From: Nitrospirota bacterium
GTDB lineage: Bacteria; Nitrospirota; UBA9217
Length of the DNA stretch: 64,000 bases
Assembly: GCA_963840455.1 (NCBI GenBank)
Contig: CAWIYV010000010.1
Location: 416,001 to 480,000, forward strand
Direction of reading: 5' to 3'
Part shown: one piece after another, positions 743-32,175 of the stretch
Position numbering within the stretch: position 1 is the first letter of the stretch
Layout: each line of letters begins with the position of its first letter
Position numbers and translations under genes: made by a program
The notes under the pieces: generated by a model
Seen by the model: only the letters and a program-made list of their open reading frames with translations
What the model was told of the DNA's origin: nothing
Databases searched by the model: none

Positions 743-902
743 GACTCCTCCTTGCAATGCTATTGCTTCCTGAATATCCGGTCGTTAAGGACGCTCTTGA
801 CATACTCATGCCCATCTGTGGCATATTGTCTCCGCTGTTAAAGACTCCTCATCCCACGCAGCAGTCCCCTGGCGGGCTATGAACAGTCCTTTTCGCAGAA
901 CG

Positions 903-1379
903 CTAAGGCTCTTGCTGACGTTCCTGTATGACCGCGTCGCTGCCCAGATAGGGTTCGAACAATTTCTTCAGCCGGGGAAGCTGATCGGCCAGCCAGATGA
1001 GCTGTTTCGAATTCTCCACGGTGACCCCGTCGCGCTCCTCTCCGATGGGAAGGTCGGTGCTCTTCAAACGGTCATTGGTGGCCCGCAGCTTCGAGGCCTG
1101 TGCATACAGCTTGTCGATATAATCCGTTATCTCCTGGCCGAAGAGGAATGCGCCTTCCTGGGTCTTTGCCCGGAACTCCTGCAGGCTTTGGCGAGAAATA
1201 TCCCCGTCGCGGGTGATGGTGCTGAGGAGCTGTACGATCTCCCGGTATATGCGCAGGCGATTTTCATACAGATCGCCGTTCGCTTGCGCTTTGTCCTTCC
1301 GATAATATTGATAGGCGATGTAGGTCGTGCTGGCCGCAATGACGAGCAGGAGAAGCGTATCAAGGATGTTCGTGACCAT
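903..1379 (-). CDS. Hypothetical protein with one N-terminal transmembrane helix
   Basis: Clean ORF in the same direction as its neighbours. Hydrophobic LLLLVIAASTTYIAY segment followed by a helical soluble domain. Confidence 0.65.
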   Translation of the reverse strand: MVTNILDTLLLLVIAASTTYIAYQYYRKDKAQANGDLYENRLRIYREIVQLLSTITRDGDISRQSLQEFRAKTQEGAFLFGQEITDYIDKLYAQASKLRATNDRLKSTDLPIGEERDGVTVENSKQLIWLADQLPRLKKLFEPYLGSDAVIQERQQEP

Positions 1380-1444
1380 GACCAAGCTCTGTCTTTCTCC
1401 GCAGAACACTGCGCCTGCCCGTGATCAGGCATGCGATGCCGCGG

Positions 1445-4400
1445 TTAGTTTTCCCTCTCGCACCATTCCCGGGCGTTCTGGAACATCCGGAGCCAGGGCG
1501 ACGCCGCAAGCGTCCTCTTCATCTGCTCCGGCATCCAGCCCCACTGCCAGGGGAGCACCACACGCTCGGGGTGCGGCATCATGGCAAGATGCCTGCCGTC
1601 AGGCGAGCACAGGCCCGCGATGCCTGCAGGTGAGCCATTGGGATTGAACGGGTAGTCTTCCGTGATCGCGCCGTTATCATCGACATAGCGGAGTGGAGCA
1701 AGACCGAACTCCGCTTCATTGTATATGTCTTTCTCGGGAAAATAGGCCATACCCTCACCATGGGCGACCCAGATGCCGAGCGCCGAGTTCTCCATGCCTT
1801 GGAACATGATGGCCGGGCTCTTCAGGACCTTCACGGTGGAAAAGCGGGACTCGAAGCGGCCGGACCGGTTGTGGATGAAGCGCGGCTGCAGCTCGTCGGC
1901 AATGCCCCGCCACGGCACCCAGCCGAGCAGCGCCATGAGCTGGCAACCGTTGCACACGCCGAGACTGAAGGTGTCGGGCCGGTGATAGAAGCGCTCGAAC
2001 TGTTCCCAGACCTTCTTGTTGAACCGTATGCTCGCCGCCCATCCCTTCGCCGAATCGAGCACGTCGGCGTAGCTGAACCCGCCGACGAACACCACGCCGC
2101 GGAATCCGTCGAGCGTCGCCCGGCCTTCGAGAAGGTCCGTCATCATCACGTCCCAAGGCTCGAAGCCCGCGAGGGCGAAGGCCGAGACCATCTCGCGGTC
2201 GCCGTTGCTCCCCTCTTCCCGGATCACCGCGACCTTCGGCTTGTCCTTCCGCGCGAGCGCGGACGCAGGCGTCGGCTCAGGTTTGAAGGGAACGATAAAC
2301 TGCGGTCCTTTCCGGTCATAGTTATTCTTCCGTTCTTCGCGGATGCTGTCCGGGTTCCGCTGGAACAGGTCGAGGCGGTGGCTCGTCTCTTCCCAGATGT
2401 CGCGAAGCACGCGCATGTCCTCGTCGAGCACGCTCTTCCAGCCCAGGTCCACCTTGATGCGCTTCTCCTGCACGGTCTTTCCGATCATAAAGAACGGCAC
2501 CTCGGCGCTGCTCAGGACCCGAAAGATCGCAGCTTCGCATGTCGGCAGGTATTCAACGACCAGCCCGGCTTCTTCGGAGAAGAGCGTCGCGATCGGATCG
2601 CTGCTGTGAACGCTCTCGCTCGGCAGGTTGATGTCGATGCCGCAGTTCCCGGAGAAGGACATCTCGAGCAGCGTCGTGATGATGCCCCCGTCGGAGCGGT
2701 CGTGGCCGGCGAGAATGAGGCGCTTGCTGATCAGCTTCTGTACAGCATTGAAACCGCGCTTCAGCAGTTCGGCGTCCTCGATGTCCGGCGACTCGTTCCC
2801 TGTCTGGCCGAAGACTTGCGCCAGGGCCGAGCCGCCAAGGCGGTTCTTGCCGCTCGAGAGATCGATGAACAGAAGATTGCTCCGTCCCGGCATCTTGAGG
2901 TCAGGCGTGACCGTCTTGGTAATGTCGGGGCAGGTGACGTAGGCGGAGATGACGAGCGTGCCCGGTGACTTCACCGTTTCGTGCGATCCGTCGGCGTTCG
3001 TCACTTTCGCTGCCATCGAAAGACTGTCCTTCCCGCCGTCGACCGCGATGCCGAGCTTGATCATGATGTCCCGCATGGCGACGGCGGCATCATACAACCG
3101 GCTGCCTTCGCCCGGGAGCTTGGGCGCCCACATCCAGTTGCCGGAGCATCGGATGTCCCCGAGCCCGCTCACTTCGGCCCAGATAATGTTCGTAAGCGCT
3201 TCGGCGATGCTCATCCTTGCCATGGCAGCCGGGTCGAGTAGCTCCTTCACCGGCTGCTCGCCGATGGAACAGGCTGCACCGGTGGTGCCGAAGTGGGACT
3301 GGGCGATGACCGCGACGTCGGACACGGTAAGCTGCAAGGGGCCTGCGCACTGCTGACGCGCGATGAGGCCGGTCACGGACCGGTCGACCTTGTTCGTAAG
3401 AAAGCGTTTCGATCCGACCGAAAGAAGCCTCAGCACACGGTCAAGGGCCTTCCTGACTGTCAGATCAGGGGGAAGTTCAAGTGGCTTGAGCGCTGATTTC
3501 CTGCGGTCGAGCGTGAAGGTCTTTTGCGGCATGTCGCCCAGCACTTTCGACAGCTCGAGGTTCACCGGCGTGGAACCGTCGCTCGCGTCATGAAGAACGA
3601 TATAGCCGTCGCCGGTTACCTGGCCGATGAACGCTACCGGCACCTTCTCCCGCGTACAGAGATCCTCAAAGAGCGGCGCATGCTCCGGCTTCAGCAGCAG
3701 CGCGTTCTGCTCCTGGTATTCGGCGCCCCAGATCTCGAGCGCCGACAGGGTCTCATCACCCACCTGGATCTTCCGGATCTCGATCTTCGCGCCGGCAGGG
3801 TGAACGATCTCTTTCACCACGTTGCAGTTCCCGCCCGCACCCTGGTCGTGGATGCTCACAATCGGGTTCTTCTCGCCCAATTCCACGCAGGCTCGGATCA
3901 CGCGGTTCATCTTTTGCTCCATCTCGGCGTCGCCGCGCTGGACAGCGTTGAAGTCGAGCTCCGCTATATTCTCGCCCTGGATCATGGACGAAGCAGCACC
4001 ACCGCCCATACCGATGCGGTAGGCGGGGCCGCCCACCTTGACCACGAGCATCCCCTTCTGGGGCTCCGATTTCGACCTGTGGCGGCTGTCCATCTGGCCG
4101 ATGCCGCCGCTGAACATGATCGGCTTGAGCCACTCGCGCCGCTCGCCGTCGGGGAGACGCAAGCCGAAGGACCGCGTGAACCCCTGAATGAGCGGCTCAC
4201 CGAACTTGTTGCCGTAGTCAGACGCACCATTGCTCGCCTCAACCTCGATCTGAAGCGGCGACGCGAGGTTCGAGGGATACACGAAGGACGCGTCCTCCCA
4301 TGGCAACTCGTACCCCGGAATGCGGAGGTTCCCGACACAGTAGGCGGCCGTGCCGGCCACGACAAGTCCGCCGATACCCGTGGCCTGCACGTCGCGGATG

Positions 4401-5398
4401 CGGCCGCCGGTCCCGGTCTCGGCGCCCGGGAAGGGGGCCACGCCCGAGGGGAAATTGTGCGTCTCGGCGGTGAAAATGATGTCGTGCCTTCGCTTCGCTT
4501 TCTTAAAAGGAGACGGGCTACCGGGGGTCTCAGGGATTATCGTGGTAATATCGTAGCCCCGGATGGAGCTTGAATTATCGCTGAAGGCGATGATGCTGTT
4601 GTTCCGGTTCGCCTCGTACGTCGCCTTCACGATCTTCATCAGCGTCTCGGGGACCTCCCTGCCGTCCACAATGAGCTTGCCGCGGAAGAACCAGTGGCGC
4701 GAGTGCTCGCTGTTCGACTGGGAAAGATCGAAGCACTCCACATTGGTGGGATTCCGCCCGATGTCCTTCACAAAGAGACTGGTATAGTAATCAAGGTCCC
4801 AGTCATCCATGCCCAGCCCCATAGCGCGATTGATCTTCTCGAGCGCCGGCCTGCCTTCTTCCATGAGCGGGATAACGCGGACCGGCTCAGGATTCACGCC
4901 GGTCTCAAAGGTTGTGAGCGGCTCCGGATAGGGGCACTCGGTCATGCGGTCGTGTACCAGCGACAGGAATGCGGCCCGCTGCCCCCGGCTCAGCGCCACC
5001 TTCCCAGCAAGGACCAGCACATAGCGGCGCGAGCGCTCGATGCGCGTGATCTTCCTGAGCCCGCAGGCATGGCAGACGGACACAGCGTTCGTGGACCAGG
5101 CCGTGGTGAAGCTCATGCGAGGACCGACCTCGAACAGGATGTACGGCCGCGGGTGAGAGGCATCGGCAGCGAGAAAGCTCCTTGCCGAGAACTTCTCCGG
5201 TTCGAAGGTCTCGGCAAGGAGCCACCGGAGGAGAAGCATCTCATCCGCGGACAGCGATGATAACGCGGCAATGTTATAGCAGAACTCGGTCTCGATGCCA
5301 TGGACGCCGCGAAAGACCTCCTGCCGCACGGCATGGAGGAGGCCGTCGGTCTGGAACGAGGAGAGTGCAGGGGTGCGGTAGAGACGAAAGAGGACCAT
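1445..5398 (-). CDS. purL: Phosphoribosylformylglycinamidine synthase, large single-chain type (fused PurS/PurL/PurQ)
   Basis: SNSEHSRH, AETHNFP, GAETGTGGRIRD, HDQGAGGN, GGFSYADVL, GVCNGCQ (catalytic Cys) and MMPHPER motifs. Confidence 0.97.
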   Translation of the reverse strand: MVLFRLYRTPALSSFQTDGLLHAVRQEVFRGVHGIETEFCYNIAALSSLSADEMLLLRWLLAETFEPEKFSARSFLAADASHPRPYILFEVGPRMSFTTAWSTNAVSVCHACGLRKITRIERSRRYVLVLAGKVALSRGQRAAFLSLVHDRMTECPYPEPLTTFETGVNPEPVRVIPLMEEGRPALEKINRAMGLGMDDWDLDYYTSLFVKDIGRNPTNVECFDLSQSNSEHSRHWFFRGKLIVDGREVPETLMKIVKATYEANRNNSIIAFSDNSSSIRGYDITTIIPETPGSPSPFKKAKRRHDIIFTAETHNFPSGVAPFPGAETGTGGRIRDVQATGIGGLVVAGTAAYCVGNLRIPGYELPWEDASFVYPSNLASPLQIEVEASNGASDYGNKFGEPLIQGFTRSFGLRLPDGERREWLKPIMFSGGIGQMDSRHRSKSEPQKGMLVVKVGGPAYRIGMGGGAASSMIQGENIAELDFNAVQRGDAEMEQKMNRVIRACVELGEKNPIVSIHDQGAGGNCNVVKEIVHPAGAKIEIRKIQVGDETLSALEIWGAEYQEQNALLLKPEHAPLFEDLCTREKVPVAFIGQVTGDGYIVLHDASDGSTPVNLELSKVLGDMPQKTFTLDRRKSALKPLELPPDLTVRKALDRVLRLLSVGSKRFLTNKVDRSVTGLIARQQCAGPLQLTVSDVAVIAQSHFGTTGAACSIGEQPVKELLDPAAMARMSIAEALTNIIWAEVSGLGDIRCSGNWMWAPKLPGEGSRLYDAAVAMRDIMIKLGIAVDGGKDSLSMAAKVTNADGSHETVKSPGTLVISAYVTCPDITKTVTPDLKMPGRSNLLFIDLSSGKNRLGGSALAQVFGQTGNESPDIEDAELLKRGFNAVQKLISKRLILAGHDRSDGGIITTLLEMSFSGNCGIDINLPSESVHSSDPIATLFSEEAGLVVEYLPTCEAAIFRVLSSAEVPFFMIGKTVQEKRIKVDLGWKSVLDEDMRVLRDIWEETSHRLDLFQRNPDSIREERKNNYDRKGPQFIVPFKPEPTPASALARKDKPKVAVIREEGSNGDREMVSAFALAGFEPWDVMMTDLLEGRATLDGFRGVVFVGGFSYADVLDSAKGWAASIRFNKKVWEQFERFYHRPDTFSLGVCNGCQLMALLGWVPWRGIADELQPRFIHNRSGRFESRFSTVKVLKSPAIMFQGMENSALGIWVAHGEGMAYFPEKDIYNEAEFGLAPLRYVDDNGAITEDYPFNPNGSPAGIAGLCSPDGRHLAMMPHPERVVLPWQWGWMPEQMKRTLAASPWLRMFQNAREWCEREN

Positions 5399-5514
5399 AT
5401 TTATCTTAATACCAAGGCCCGGGATGTGCCGTGCGAGCACCTGGTACGAGAGGGGGCCATGGTGTCATCCTGGAAACCATGCTCTGCTGCCGCAAGTGTT
5501 CGATCTAGCTGAGG

Positions 5515-5916
5515 TTACTTCCGTTCGGCCAGGGAGACGACCTTCTGATCGGATGATTTTTTCTGGCTGGCCATCTCGCACTTGCCGTCGAAAGTCACGC
5601 CTTCTTCGATAATGAGATTCGGGGTCTTGATGTTCCCTTCGATGATGCCCGGAGCGAGGATATGCACTCTCTGGCTCGCATTGACGTTGCCGACGATCTT
5701 CCCGCTCGAGATGATCGTCCCGATGCTGATCTCGCCCTGGAGGTGGGCCTCGTCGCCGGCGATCAAGGTGTCCTTCGAGAGGACTTCTCCTTCCACCCTG
5801 CCGTCGACCCGGATGGTCCCCTCGAAACTGAGCACGCCCTTGAACTCGGTGCCCTTGCCGAGGAACGCGGTGATCTCCGCATGTTCCGCTGATACGCCCG
5901 AAGCTTTTTTCAACAT
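5515..5916 (-). CDS. Bactofilin (polymer-forming cytoskeletal protein, CcmA family)
   Basis: TAFLGKGTEFKGVLSFEGTIRVDGRVEGEV...IEGNIKTPNLIIEEGVTFDGKCEM beta-helix pattern. Confidence 0.93.
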   Translation of the reverse strand: MLKKASGVSAEHAEITAFLGKGTEFKGVLSFEGTIRVDGRVEGEVLSKDTLIAGDEAHLQGEISIGTIISSGKIVGNVNASQRVHILAPGIIEGNIKTPNLIIEEGVTFDGKCEMASQKKSSDQKVVSLAERK

Positions 5917-5956
5917 GGATGAATCCTCCTCAGGAAATTCTTAGAAAGATCTTCGT

Positions 5957-6040
5957 CACAGAGGTCACCGAGAGCACAGAGAAGAGCCATTGCAAAAACC
6001 CCTCTCGTCTCCCTTCGTGTCCTCCGTGTGCTCTATGGTA
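5957..6040. repeat. Imperfect short-unit tandem/inverted repeat (CACAGAG...CTCCGTGTG type) in an intergenic region
   Basis: CACAGAGGTCACCGAGAGCACAGAGA faces CTTCGTGTCCTCCGTGTGCTCTATGG. A similar element lies at about 31508-31573. Confidence 0.55.
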
Positions 6041-6056
6041 CTATCTTGATCGATAC

Positions 6057-6902
6057 TTACCCGATCGTTTCCAGGATGCGCTCCAGCTCTTCGTTGGAAT
6101 AGTACTCGATGATGATCTTCCCGCCCTTGGCCTTGGCTGCGATGCTCACCTTCGTGCCGAGGGATTTTCTCAGCCGATCCTCAATAGCCTTGAACTCGGC
6201 TCCCGCTCGCGCCTTCTTCTCCTTCACCGGATTCTTGAGCCGGGCCGCAAGCGCCTCGGCCTCACGGACCGAGAGCGCCTTCTTCACGATCTGGTTCGCT
6301 GCGAACATCTGGTCGCGCAGCCGTTCAAGGGAAAGGAGGGCCTTGGCATGACCCATATTGAGCGTGCCCGCTGCCAGGTGCTGTTTTATCTCCTTCGGCA
6401 GTCCGAGAAGCCGCAGGAAGTTGGTGATCGTGGAGCGCTCCTTGCCCACGCGCTTTGCGAGGTCCTCCTGGGTCAGCTTGTATTCGTCTTGGAGCTGCTT
6501 GAACGCTTCCGCTGCTTCGAGCGGGTTCAGGTCCTCGCGCTGGATGTTCTCGATGAGGGCCTGCTCGATGAGCTCCCGCTTGCTGGCCTCCCGGACCAGC
6601 GCCGGGACCGTCTTAAGGCCGGCAAGTCGCGCAGCACGCCAGCGGCGCTCGCCGGCGATGAGGCCGAAGTTCGTGCCGATGCGGTGCACGATGATCGGCT
6701 GGATGACGCCCTGAATTTTGATCGACGCGGCAAGTTCCTTGAGTTTCTCGTCGTTGAACACCTTCCGGGGCTGATATTCGTTCGGGACCAGCTTGTCCAG
6801 CTCGATCTCCAGGATGCCGAGGGATTTCCGCTCTTTTTCATCAAGGGCAGAAAGGTCGGGGATCAGCGCGCCGAGCCCCTTACCGAGCGCCTGTTTTTGC
6901 AT
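6057..6902 (-). CDS. parB: Chromosome partitioning protein ParB/Spo0J
   Basis: ALGKGLGALI, PNEYQPR, IAGERRWRA, ENIQREDLNPLE and an HTH region. Confidence 0.97.
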   Translation of the reverse strand: MQKQALGKGLGALIPDLSALDEKERKSLGILEIELDKLVPNEYQPRKVFNDEKLKELAASIKIQGVIQPIIVHRIGTNFGLIAGERRWRAARLAGLKTVPALVREASKRELIEQALIENIQREDLNPLEAAEAFKQLQDEYKLTQEDLAKRVGKERSTITNFLRLLGLPKEIKQHLAAGTLNMGHAKALLSLERLRDQMFAANQIVKKALSVREAEALAARLKNPVKEKKARAGAEFKAIEDRLRKSLGTKVSIAAKAKGGKIIIEYYSNEELERILETIG

Positions 6903-7656
6903 GGCTCAGAACCTCCCTTGCGAGATCGAGATAGCTCTGCGCACCTTTCGAGCGTATATCATAGAGAATGACGGGTTTGCCATGGCTGGGTGCTTCGCTC
7001 AACGTCACATTCCGGTTGATCACCGTATTGTAGACCTTGCTGCCGAAATACTTGCGCACCTCGCTGGCTACCTGGTCCGCGAGATTGTTCCGACTGTCGT
7101 ACATGGTCAGGAGCACGCCTTCGACGACCAGCTCCGGGTTCAGATCCTGCTTGATGAGCTTCACGGTGTTCATGAGCGCTGACAATCCCTCGAGTGCATA
7201 GTACTCGCACTGGACCGGGATCAGTACCCCGTCGGCCGCGGTCAGGGCGTTCACCGTCAACAGACCTAGCGATGGCGGGCAGTCTATGAAGATGTAATCG
7301 TAACTGTTTCGATACGGTTGGAGCGCCTTCTTGAGCACCCGCTCGCGGGAGATCATCTGGATAAGCTCGACCTCCACCCCGACGAGGTCGATCCGGGAAG
7401 GAACGACCTCGAGCCAGGAAAAATGCGTCGCCTTTTTAATCTCTTCAAGGGAACGCTTGCCGGTAAACAGGTCGTACGTGCTACCGACCACGTCCTGCCG
7501 GTCGATCCCCATTCCGCTTGTGGAATTGCCCTGGGGGTCGGAGTCGATGAGCAATACCTTCTTTTCCGCTGCGGCAAGCGAAGCGGCGATGTTCACTGCG
7601 GTCGTCGTCTTGCCGACACCGCCCTTTTGATTGGCAATGGCAATGACCCTGCCCAT
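6880..7656 (-). CDS. parA: Chromosome partitioning ATPase ParA/Soj
   Basis: IANQKGGVGKTT, DSDPQGN, DCPPSLG, PVQCEYYALEG and LSEAPSHG. Confidence 0.97.
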   Translation of the reverse strand: MGRVIAIANQKGGVGKTTTAVNIAASLAAAEKKVLLIDSDPQGNSTSGMGIDRQDVVGSTYDLFTGKRSLEEIKKATHFSWLEVVPSRIDLVGVEVELIQMISRERVLKKALQPYRNSYDYIFIDCPPSLGLLTVNALTAADGVLIPVQCEYYALEGLSALMNTVKLIKQDLNPELVVEGVLLTMYDSRNNLADQVASEVRKYFGSKVYNTVINRNVTLSEAPSHGKPVILYDIRSKGAQSYLDLAREVLSHAKTGAR

Positions 7657-30591: not shown

Positions 30592-30658
30592 GTTATGACC
30601 GCGAGTGAGGAAATACAGACTCTATCATCGAATATCAAGAAGAAGGAGGAAGAACACA

Positions 30659-31168
30659 ATGAAGAGGATCGTAGCAGCAGTATTGGTCGCCGGTATGCTC
30701 GTATCGTTCGCCGGCTGCAAGAAAAAAGAGGAGAAGCCGCAGCTGCCGGCCGGCCATCCCAGCACGGAAGGCGGTATGCCGCAGGCGGGCATGCCTGATA
30801 TGCCGAAGGTCGACCGCACGGTCGTGGTGCCGAAGGAGGTCGCGGCAAAGTGGAAGTCGGTCAAGATTACGATCGAGGACAAGGCGGCGAAAGGCTCCAA
30901 GGAATATACCATCGCGGTAGGCGCCGAGCAGGCTATCCCGAACACGACCATCAAGGTGAAGGTGCTTGCGTTCCTGCCGGACTTCAAGATGGGCGAGAAG
31001 GAAATCACCTCGACATCCGACAAGCCGAACAATCCGGCAGCCCAGGTGTCAGTGACCGACGGCGGCAAGGAGGTCTGGAAAGGCTGGCTCTATTCCATGC
31101 ATCCCGGTGTCCATCCGTTCCAGCACGAAAAGATCGGCCTGACCCTGATTGGCGGCGTTTCCAAGTAA
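30659..31168 (+). CDS. Lipoprotein, DUF2155-like
   Basis: Lipobox FAGC, LPAGHP, FLPDF, NPAA.V and GWLYSMHP..H.F.H. Confidence 0.75.
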   Translation: MKRIVAAVLVAGMLVSFAGCKKKEEKPQLPAGHPSTEGGMPQAGMPDMPKVDRTVVVPKEVAAKWKSVKITIEDKAAKGSKEYTIAVGAEQAIPNTTIKVKVLAFLPDFKMGEKEITSTSDKPNNPAAQVSVTDGGKEVWKGWLYSMHPGVHPFQHEKIGLTLIGGVSK

Positions 31169-31231
31169 ACAGCGAACAATCGAACGAAATGATGCACAGG
31201 CGTGAGGGCAGCGCCTGTGCATCCTATTTTT

Positions 31232-31308
31232 GCGCCCATAGCTCAGTTGGATAGAGCGACGGACTACGAATCCGTAGGCCAGAGGTTCGAATCCTCTTGG
31301 GCGCGCCA
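31232..31308 (+). tRNA. tRNA-Arg(ACG)
   Basis: GCGCCCA acceptor, anticodon loop CTACGAA, GTTCGAATC and GCCA. Confidence 0.98.
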
Positions 31309-31322
31309 TTTTTCATATTTTG

Positions 31323-31496
31323 GTCACACGTGCTTGCCGGGCCGAAAGGCCCGGGCAGCGTATGAACCTCTGACCAAGGGGTCCTCGGGGAAAGATTCCC
31401 CTAGGCTTTGGAGGCGATGCCAGGGAGGGCGGGCACCCTCTGGGGAGCCACGCGCGGGCGACAGGTCATGAGGGTCAAATCCTCTCAGGCACGCCA
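31323..31496 (+). ncRNA. Unclassified tRNA-like structured element (acceptor-like stem, T-arm-like hairpin and CCA end around a multi-hairpin core)
   Basis: GTGCTTG (31330-36) pairs with CAGGCAC (31486-92), followed by GCCA. T-arm-like GAGG-GTCAAAT-CCTC. Internal CCGGGCC-GAAA-GGCCCGG and other stems. No D-arm or anticodon arm. Confidence 0.55.
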
Positions 31497-31581
31497 TGTT
31501 TGTTGATCACTGCCAGGAGCGGAGCGTGCGCGGACGAACGTCAGGGAGGAGTGGCTCGGCGTGCTCTGCGGTGACCGTATT

Positions 31582-32049
31582 ATGAGCGACCTGGTGCGCA
31601 GGACCGATGAAGACCATATGCGGATGGCACTGGCGGAAGCCGAGAAGGCAGCCGCTGAGGGCGAAACGCCGATCGGCGCCGTGCTGGTTATCGGGGATCA
31701 GGTCATCACAACCGCGCATAATATGCGCGAAACGTGGCAGGACCCGACAGCGCATGCTGAATCCATCGTTTTGCGGGACGCGTCTGAACAGCTCGGCAGA
31801 TGGCGTCTTCCTGATGCCACGGTCTTTGTGACCATGGAGCCGTGCCTGATGTGCGCCGGAGCCCTGGTCCTCGCAAGGGTCGGCAGACTGGTCTACGGCT
31901 GCAGGGATCCCCGGGCAGGCGCGTTGGGCTCGGTCTATGATGTCGTGAGGGATGGCAGGTTGAACCATGTGTACCGTATAACGCCGGGAGTGCTCGAGGC
32001 GGAATGCCGGTCGGTCCTTCAAGGCTTCTTTGAGAAGCTGAGAACATGA
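31582..32049 (+). CDS. tadA: tRNA adenosine(34) deaminase
   Basis: GETPIGAV, DPTAHAE, EPCLMCAGA and LNH. Adjacent to tRNA-Arg(ACG). Confidence 0.96.
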   Translation: MSDLVRRTDEDHMRMALAEAEKAAAEGETPIGAVLVIGDQVITTAHNMRETWQDPTAHAESIVLRDASEQLGRWRLPDATVFVTMEPCLMCAGALVLARVGRLVYGCRDPRAGALGSVYDVVRDGRLNHVYRITPGVLEAECRSVLQGFFEKLRT

Positions 32050-32085
32050 TGATGCATCGCAGGGAAGCATTATCCGGTTTCATCG

Positions 32086-32175
32086 GGAGAGGTGGCCGAG
32101 CGGCTGAAGGCGGCAGTCTCGAAAACTGTTGTGGGGGTAACTCCACCGGGGGTTCAAATCCCCCCCTCTCCGCCA
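32086..32175 (+). tRNA. tRNA-Ser(CGA)
   Basis: Anticodon loop CTCGAAA, long variable arm, GTTCAAATC and CCA. Confidence 0.97.

Follow-up and report, generated by a model that had tools for sequence, protein, structure and literature searches.

The tRNA-Arg(ACG) locus of the window

The window, by which we mean the whole 64,000-nucleotide stretch of Nitrospirota DNA under study, contains an intact tRNA-Arg(ACG) gene that is followed, at positions 31323-31496, by a structured element and then by the tadA gene. A first-pass annotation had described the element as an unclassified RNA mimicking a tRNA or as an element targeting tRNA genes. Comparison with related genomes showed that the stretch is not a lone tRNA mimic but a diverged member of a tRNA-associated family, whose members are called cassettes hereafter. 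The parts recognised in the window copy are listed below with the two flanking genes.

31232..31308, + strand: tRNA-Arg(ACG), intact (ARAGORN; Rfam tRNA, 73.1 bits)
31276-31308, + strand: direct repeat copy 1 (DR1), the first copy of the repeated tail, i.e. the last ~33 nt of tRNA-Arg(ACG)
31309..31363, + strand: trailer or spacer, unconserved between genera (trailers cannot be aligned)
31330..31336, + strand: anti-acceptor heptamer GTGCTTG, with its partner strand at 31486-31492
31337-31354, + strand: hairpin with a GAAA loop inside the trailer, found only in the genus of the window
31364..31375, + strand: antisense arm (AS) GAACCTCTGACC, recognised from the inverted repeat, the start of the covariance-model match and duplex energies
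31376..31462, + strand: conserved core (match to covariance model R1, pair counts on 32 copies, core tree)
31463..31496, + strand: direct repeat copy 2 (DR2), the second copy of the tail, with variable loop, T-arm, 3′ acceptor strand, discriminator and CCA (direct repeat, family alignments)
31561..32049, + strand: tadA, the next gene downstream (NCBIfam NF008113, 159.4 bits for a cut-off of 150)

The relative of the tRNA tail that had been noticed in front of the second CCA corresponds to a direct repeat of 32 nt with 81% identity (31282-31313 and 31470-31501, offset 188 nt, 153 nt between the copies). DR2 of the window has diverged: its T-loop reads GTCAAAT, its T-stem is irregular and its acceptor strand, CAGGCAC, differs from that of tRNA-Arg at three positions. 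The main inverted repeat joins 31272-31288, that is the variable loop and T-stem of the tRNA, to 31364-31380 (17 nt, 82%) and recurs throughout the family. Accordingly, the arm GAACCTCTGACC complements tRNA-Arg positions 45-56, which comprise the variable loop, the 5′ strand of the T-stem and TTC. Another inverted repeat, matching at 10 of 15 positions between 31323-31337 and 31448-31462, had been put forward earlier; it was absent from the six inverted repeats recovered.

Within the core of the window copy, hairpin H1 (31383-31405) is followed by a G-rich joint, hairpin H2 (31420-31443), GGAG, the short hairpin H3 (31447-31459) and GAC. The hairpins claimed by the first-pass annotation were indeed present, at 31337-31354, 31383-31405 and 31420-31443. 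The fold of the 174-nt stretch has an energy of -85.8 kcal/mol as compared to a mean of -73.3 for shuffled sequences (z = -2.76), and none of 200 shuffles was as good. Model R1 matched the window copy over 31364-31497 with 94.1 bits (E = 2.7e-26).

Known families and coding potential

Using Rfam 15 at gathering thresholds, no match was found within 31309-31497. At E <= 10, only chance-level fragments appeared (11.5-18.7 bits), with no ribozyme or intron family among them. ARAGORN reported nothing in 31323-31496. These checks thus matched no known RNA family. As had been argued from the sequence of the element, it is not a transfer-messenger RNA (tmRNA), showing no G3-U70 pair, no tag reading frame and no Rfam match. 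A group I intron, already judged improbable at first, was rejected as well, since the core measures ~90 nt as compared to at least 200 nt, the tRNA is uninterrupted and no intron family matched at E <= 10. The coding reading, an open reading frame (ORF) of 57 aa on the reverse strand (31324-31497), was not kept either: indels of 1-2 nt in loops break the frame in other copies, and no reading frame is conserved across the family copies.

Two mobile-element readings were discarded. A miniature inverted-repeat transposable element (MITE) does not account for arms that differ from tRNA to tRNA and copy the target, nor for a duplication of 18-33 nt plus trailer, and there are no fixed terminal inverted repeats. 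The scar of an integrase-borne island would explain the tail repeat, yet the interior is homologous at every site and every tRNA, without gene remnants. No integrase-like ORF lies beside the window copy; the integron integrase IntI was not searched for genome-wide.

A family of elements behind tRNA genes

A DNA search of relatives revealed similar stretches behind tRNA-Arg genes of four anticodons. The search for the core in related genomes thereby uncovered a family flanked by tRNA genes. Covariance model R1 was built from 14 copies. In the genome of the window, it matched at C14:158037-158171 (141.8 bits) and C14:158878-159009 (125.2 bits), besides the window copy, together with a weaker fourth copy, of the Leu type, behind tRNA-Leu(CAA). 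Searched against 64 genomes of the home family, R1 gave matches in 53 at E <= 1e-3 and in 47 at E <= 1e-6, the six weakest of the 53 being probably matches to a tRNA only. Of 151 genomes sampled from the phylum, 34 matched at E <= 1e-4. Beyond the home family, two other Nitrospirota families yielded real copies on inspection, in five genomes altogether; these lie behind tRNA-Gly(CCC) and tRNA-Ser(GGA, CGA) and, as a triple tandem, behind tRNA-Gly(GCC). Several weak matches of 49-50 nt outside the home family were taken as tRNA tails. Overall, at least 12 tRNA species (Arg, Gly, Leu, Ala, Ser) in three families of Nitrospirota are followed by such elements.

The position of the copies is strikingly uniform. 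All 43 matches of the first inspected set, taken from the family search, lie behind a tRNA on the same strand, 39 of them at a distance of 26-62 nt and four as second units of a tandem. In the second inspected set, 30 of 34 matches were placed likewise. The other four come after an incomplete tRNA-Ala tail, the remainder of a tRNA split by a classical island. We considered whether such copies, distant from a complete tRNA, might be the ends of cargo islands; this was rejected, since the classical islands, with their 45-nt repeat, had split tRNA-Ala upstream of the cassettes. Most copies sit within tRNA arrays and not before tadA.

A scan of wider genome contigs with the core pattern was also performed. 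Only two of the 80 loci examined were real (L111 and L116), the rest being mainly a hairpin repeat of Bacteroidota. Because it is swamped by this repeat, the scan gives no picture beyond Nitrospirota. The Bacteroidota repeat (Chitinophagaceae, Ferruginibacter, Prolixibacteraceae and others; L074-L153) is a dispersed hairpin of ~28 nt, unrelated to the cassette family and often found at gene ends, in which CTCCCC-CTTC-GGGGAG is followed by TTGGAGGGGGC.

Anatomy of the cassettes, antisense arm and junction

The anatomy was studied on 66 distinct copies having a tRNA less than 90 nt upstream. All share a plan consisting of the tRNA, the trailer, the antisense arm, the core of three hairpins with G-rich joints, and a tail copy ending in CCA. 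The trailer measures 26-74 nt and cannot be aligned between genera, whereas the core of ~90 nt is 97-99% alike across them; the unit as a whole measures ~190 nt. The tail copy corresponds to the last 18-33 nt of the tRNA including CCA, and the arm, 12-18 nt long, changes with the neighbouring tRNA. Two types can be distinguished. In the Arg/Gly type, the arm complements tRNA positions 45-56 and the tail copy has ~32 nt. In the Leu/Ala/Ser type, the arm complements approximately positions 52-67, the tail copy has ~20 nt, and a terminator hairpin with a U-run is found in the trailer and again after the tail copy.

The specificity of the arm was evaluated from calculated duplex energies. The median value was -25.1 kcal/mol with the cognate tRNA as compared to -16.5 with the other 12 tRNA types, and the cognate tRNA ranked first among the 13 types in 41 of 66 copies.

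The boundaries of the tail copy are sharp. In the Arg/Gly type, identity with the tRNA extends over exactly 25 nt, starting from G52, in 14 of 38 copies, and an extra pyrimidine stands in front of it in 13 of these 14. The identity covers 26 nt in four further copies. Shorter runs are found in 13, including the window copy, and we ascribe them to later changes. For the Leu/Ala/Ser type, the identity covers 17-20 nt in 18 of 28 copies. In Arg/Gly copies, the junction separates T-stem positions 51 and 52; in Leu/Ala/Ser copies, it falls within the T-loop. Just 5′ of it there is a short imitation of the tRNA sequence; 3′ of it, the tail of the tRNA itself is found letter for letter. Duplication often continues into the trailer, since at 18 of 66 loci the similarity between the first 30 nt after the tRNA and those after the tail copy exceeds the 95th percentile of non-cognate pairs. 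As judged from the sequences, the arm is complementary across the junction, flawlessly with the intact tRNA, and with a one-base bulge or a tandem G-A when paired with the end of the cassette itself. Owing to this complementarity, the arm could line up the cassette end with the cut site in the target.

Conservation of the core

Base pairing in the three hairpins was counted on 32 Arg-type copies. Standard pairs filled 97.4% of 767 pair cells, as compared to a mean of 93.4% after shuffling, and compensatory changes were found in eight of the 24 core pairs; none of 500 shuffles reached the observed values, a count that does not amount to a probability as the 32 copies are related. When the partner columns were slid against each other, core pairing fell to 33-66%. 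Helix H2 contains 15 G-U cells and eight non-standard cells, in which A-C is pooled with the other non-pairs. The window copy occupies the longest branch of the core tree (0.43, for a median of 0.081). A core that is nearly invariant implies selection, acting either on propagation of the element or on a function in the host.

The acceptor-like stem of the window copy

The first-pass annotation rested largely on an acceptor-like stem. As stated there, GTGCTTG (31330-31336) pairs with CAGGCAC (31486-31492) at all seven positions, one pair being G-U, and the latter strand is followed by G31493 and by CCA at 31494-31496. The three compensatory changes and the one G-U with respect to the acceptor stem of tRNA-Arg were also confirmed. 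A full 7-bp partner for the 3′ heptamer arose in 569 of 20000 shuffles of the 55-nt trailer (2.8%), so that the pairing, taken alone, is suggestive, not decisive. Comparison with the ortholog of the window copy in genome G003 showed one compensatory change, two one-sided changes that preserve pairing, and one break. Among 57 family copies, only five have a full 7-bp partner in the trailer, and the mean share of shuffles that reach the best partner is 0.56. Hence, covariation of the 5′ heptamer is seen with the G003 ortholog, but across the family the heptamer performs no better than shuffled sequences. One DNA run contained a strain variant, G31336 to A, with no change of the partner among the variants listed.

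Similarly, the canonical T-arm, with a 5-bp stem and a TTCRANY loop, is found neither in the window copy nor in the Arg/Gly or Leu/Ala copies. The 5′ strand of the T-stem carries a 1-nt bulge in Arg/Gly copies and is missing in Leu/Ala copies. The tRNA-like RNA that had been proposed is thus partly supported: the acceptor stem exists and covaries with the G003 ortholog, but a full partner is rare in the family and the T-arm is noncanonical. Copies behind Arg(TCG) keep a motif, (A/G)CGYYCGG, that lies 17-23 nt after CCA and is complementary to the acceptor strand, at the same distance as GTGCTTG in the window. In our reading, the heptamer belongs to the antisense arm as a second piece lying farther out; it is real in some lineages and does not define the family.

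The GAAA-loop hairpin (31337-31354) occurs in the window copy and its one ortholog only, within the unconserved trailer. The G003 ortholog has lost both hairpin H1 and CCA, which indicates that the lineage formed by this copy and the window copy is decaying.

Presence, absence and tandem arrays

The arrangement of tRNA-Arg(ACG) and tadA is common to the family. Nearly all family genomes examined have a single tRNA-Arg(ACG) gene, directly 5′ of tadA. We compared this site in the 20 genomes, that of the window included, for which the locus was retrieved. The site was occupied in five, held a possible remnant in one and was empty in 14, three of the empty sites belonging to the window's own genus. 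The family search yielded two more copies of the ACG type. Cassettes also form tandem arrays of two or three units. At the Arg(TCG) site, nine of 11 cores form a supported clade over five genera, a pattern suggestive of descent in place. In one genome of the window's genus, the Arg(TCG) tRNA has a different core lineage, so that two core lineages are found there within this genus. The alternative proposal of the first-pass annotation, a non-autonomous element targeting tRNA genes, is thus the better fit to the many tRNAs, the tandems and the presence or absence at one site; its MITE-like character is not supported.

Some individual loci deserve mention. In the genome of the window, a second insert of ~170 nt (G000:C14:158172-158340; L029, ~473-640) directly follows the canonical Arg(TCT) cassette. 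Its interior is different; its end repeats the final 20 nt of tRNA-Arg(TCT), CCA among them, and it bears a short stretch antisense to the 3′ strand of the T-stem. This insert may represent a second cassette family stacked on tRNA-Arg(TCT). In another genome (L229, G048:C106, 1442-1591), an Arg(TCT)-type cassette truncated after H1 abuts another complete tRNA gene, which suggests rearrangement within tRNA arrays at these elements. In a second Ala-type unit (L212; L231:10762-10884), H2 is split by an insertion of ~60 nt that forms a GC-rich hairpin.

Classical islands were found in the same group of organisms. In two relatives, an intact tRNA-Ala(GGC) is separated by 6.5-9.6 kb of cargo from a 45-nt repeat starting in the anticodon loop, and cassettes follow this repeat. 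A third stretch has the same partial tail and repeated motifs, with no tRNA in the 16 kb examined. These tRNA-Ala(GGC) islands (L231:949-10530; L232, reverse strand, 900-7275; L233) contain no integrase, and repeated TTGTGCAG/TTGTGCTA motifs occur near both ends. Their cargo includes FeoB, Fur, a PccH cytochrome, a DUF4143 ATPase and three aldo-keto reductases.

Sequence runs and surroundings of the window copy

Four sequence runs covering the locus were considered, all as assembled contigs, which cannot show transcript ends. DNA contigs from two studies contain the element in place, over 31251-32175 (5 differences, 1 gap) and 31249-32175 (12 differences, 6 gaps). Contigs from RNA libraries, obtained in two runs of one study, cover 31345-31604 and 31425-31546 at a depth of 3.4-5.7, and both continue past CCA. 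It is possible that these RNA-library contigs reflect DNA carry-over.

A promoter scan of 30950-31750 gave no sigma-70-like promoter, and the sole terminator-like hairpin lies upstream of the tRNA. This hairpin (31191-31223) is perfect, with 12-nt arms and a T-run; it follows the ORF 30605-31168 and ends 8 nt before tRNA-Arg. Farther upstream neighbours of that small ORF (30605-31168) are serS and two tRNA-Ser genes. Downstream, tadA, whose product is the deaminase acting on A34 of tRNA-Arg(ACG), is followed by two further tRNA-Ser genes, the signal recognition particle (SRP) RNA gene and dnaX.

Interpretation of the element

In the reading that we tentatively put first, the window element is an aged and partly decayed member of a family of gene-less cassettes, ~190 nt long, whose insertion target in Nitrospirota is the 3′ part of tRNA genes. 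An insertion cassette is favoured over a lone tRNA mimic because the tail and trailer are duplicated, the junction is fixed, tandems occur, the element is present or absent at one site, and at least 12 tRNA species are concerned. Since the sequence after the junction is the tRNA's own tail, the tRNA gene stays intact and the displaced or duplicated tail is found at the far end of the cassette. The window copy, whose match to its tRNA is now poor, is probably inactive. During insertion, the arm would serve as a splint or guide, either as RNA or as a folded single DNA strand, by analogy with attC sites, phage CTX and intron guides. The conserved core may provide a platform for an enzyme acting in trans, or be the catalyst itself. 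Repeated insertion at the regenerated tRNA site would then build the tandem arrays. A fuller version of this model appears doubtful to us: a programmable gene-less mobile element, consisting of ~100 nt of RNA or folded single-stranded DNA (ssDNA), that would carry a re-writable T-arm guide of 12-18 nt and a spare tail, and that would insert without harming tRNA genes through cutting and joining at a fixed T-arm position, catalysed by itself or by a host enzyme.

Several observations weigh against insertion cassettes. No joint skipping the element was present among the joints listed, and neither an excised form nor an empty allele was seen. None of the copies is linked to a recombinase, a reverse transcriptase or any other gene. 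Y1 (HUH) transposases, the one enzyme family searched, are not co-distributed with the element: they occur in 99 of 151 genomes of the phylum, including element-free families, and in none of seven genomes of the family with the triple tandem. In viral contigs, four hits to the core pattern were obtained, none of which was a real copy and none of which had a tRNA. In 62 of 66 copies, the duplex formed by the arm is more stable with the true tRNA than with the tail copy of the cassette, a preference that could point to an action on the tRNA or its gene, or to quasi-palindrome correction during replication. Symmetric scoring of the arm helix gave 19 G-U against 10 A-C, too small a difference to favour RNA or DNA as the folded form. 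Finally, cores kept at 97-99% while trailers diverge fit selection on an RNA at the level of the host equally well.

This last point leads to an explanation that we regard as rather unlikely, namely a host-selected structured RNA, released by RNases from tRNA operon transcripts as a rod or as a tRNA-like molecule with CCA, and acting on its own tRNA or together with it, for instance as a decoy, in processing or in quality control. In its favour, the core matches a tRNA in degree of conservation across genera while the flanks drift, and the helices show compensatory changes, with 15 G-U cells in H2. Arm and tail follow idiosyncratic changes of the tRNA, such as the TCCGA T-loops of L060 and L062, and in the window copy compensatory changes preserve the acceptor-like helix with respect to both the tRNA and the G003 copy. 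The RNA-library contigs over 31345-31604 and 31425-31546 agree with such an RNA, but their depth is low, DNA carry-over is possible and they continue past CCA. Moreover, a host RNA leaves the duplication of tail and trailer, the tandems and the empty sites in close relatives unexplained; tRNA and element are separated in the Leu/Ala type by a terminator hairpin and its U-run, no promoter was found in the scan described above, and 17 of the 64 genomes of the home family lack a match at E <= 1e-6. Placing the catalysis in the RNA itself seems improbable. Here, a new small ribozyme would cut and join itself, perhaps with a retro-copied DNA stage; its arm would bind the tail strand, the bulge or tandem G-A would mark the scissile site, and unit-length RNAs would be cut from tandem transcripts as in viroid-like satellites or retrozymes. 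The four-helix junction of ~100 nt with invariant purine-rich joints is compatible with this, as are the tandem genomic units of one RNA length and the Leu/Ala-type unit that ends at a terminator. The helix irregularity falls exactly at the sharp junction and is absent from the pairing between the arm and the true tRNA. Against a ribozyme, no Rfam ribozyme family matched even at E <= 10, and neither cleavage, circles nor a reverse transcriptase left a sign.

The preference of the arm for the true tRNA would also be accounted for by a functionless by-product of template switching at hairpin-prone, heavily transcribed tRNA genes, where quasi-palindrome correction keeps the arm complementary. The arm lies 50-70 nt from the tRNA segment that it complements and, in the 62 of 66 copies mentioned above, matches it better than the distant tail; the weak G-U tolerance of the arm helix, 19 to 10, points the same way. 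We nevertheless hold this origin to be very improbable: it explains neither a core of ~90 nt common to 12 tRNA species and 97-99% alike across genera, nor junctions at the same tRNA position in independent tRNAs. Still further down, and hardly credible in our view, come the scar of an integrase-borne island or prophage with attL and attR and a lost interior, and a leader regulating tadA. Attachment sites are classically marked by a direct repeat of the tRNA tail, but the conservation of the interior everywhere, homologous at each site and without gene remnants, excludes a classical attachment-site scar, and the real tRNA-Ala islands, with their 45-nt repeat from the anticodon loop and 6.5-9.6 kb of cargo, are different and lie upstream of the cassettes. 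As for the leader, the window copy indeed stands just upstream of tadA, yet most copies are located in tRNA arrays and not before that gene.

If insertion cassettes are the correct reading, tRNA genes are trailed by tiny, guide-bearing, gene-less units that have so far escaped description. They would represent an element of a new kind, mobile or acting at the RNA level, whose natural guide can be re-programmed and is directed to a universal target. A new ribozyme, or a host enzyme employed in a new way, might come to light through them. Annotation is affected as well: tRNA-like pseudo-hits arise at these units, island predictors call false attachment sites there, and metagenome-assembled genomes show conserved intergenic RNA that lacks an explanation. 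The family is directly testable, as canonical copies exist in complete genomes of relatives (G115, G163).

Comparison with known systems

The cassette layout fits no described RNA family or mobile element. A full-text search of the literature, which did not extend to subscription journals, found no description of it. Integrative elements and genomic islands use the T-loop or the 3′ end of tRNA genes as attachment site, and gene-less derivatives that can be mobilised in cis exist. Like the cassette, integrative elements target the 3′ part of a tRNA, restore the gene, leave a direct repeat of the tail and are patchily distributed among relatives. In contrast, the cassette has neither integrase nor cargo, is shorter than 250 bp, and possesses a conserved folded core shared between sites as well as an antisense arm specific to each tRNA. 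The real islands of the relatives, with a 45-nt repeat starting from the anticodon loop, are unlike the cassettes.

Palindrome-associated transposable elements (PATEs), which derive from IS200/IS605, and repetitive extragenic palindromic (REP) elements are moved in trans by Y1 HUH enzymes. They resemble the cassette in being small, gene-less and rich in hairpins, and their cleavage sites are read through pairing with internal guide bases. They differ in that they do not duplicate the target and have guides of 4-5 nt, and Y1 enzymes are not co-distributed with the cassette. With the tRNA-like domain of tmRNA and with YrlA, a Y-RNA-like RNA of bacteria, the cassette shares a T-arm-like hairpin and a CCA-ended 3′ acceptor strand placed on a larger structured domain. 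It has, however, no Rfam match, no G3-U70 pair and no tag frame, its 5′ acceptor strand is found in five of 57 copies, and it is multi-copy and associated with many tRNAs.

Group I introns, which occur in bacterial tRNA genes, and group II introns have a structured core, a guide (internal guide sequence, IGS, or exon-binding sequence, EBS) and a patchy distribution. In the same way, the arm of the cassette pairs with the flanking tRNA sequence and covaries with the site. The cassette core of ~100 nt is far smaller than that of introns, no intron family of Rfam matches it and the tRNA is uninterrupted. Because it carries a spare tail, the cassette needs no splicing.

Integron cassettes, with their attC sites, and the folded ssDNA site of phage CTX may have in common with the present cassette an imperfect hairpin whose two arms carry an extrahelical base. 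Crossover within one arm would leave target sequence beyond it, and gene-less cassettes stack beside the target site. Arm and tail of the cassette form a helix with a 1-nt bulge or a tandem G-A that may resemble attC, but the interior is conserved in sequence. Its target is a tRNA gene, and beside the window copy, where the comparison was made, neither an integron integrase nor an attI site is present, IntI not having been searched for genome-wide. Above all, the 'loop' of the cassette hairpin is a sequence-conserved core of three hairpins, whereas the middle of attC is variable.

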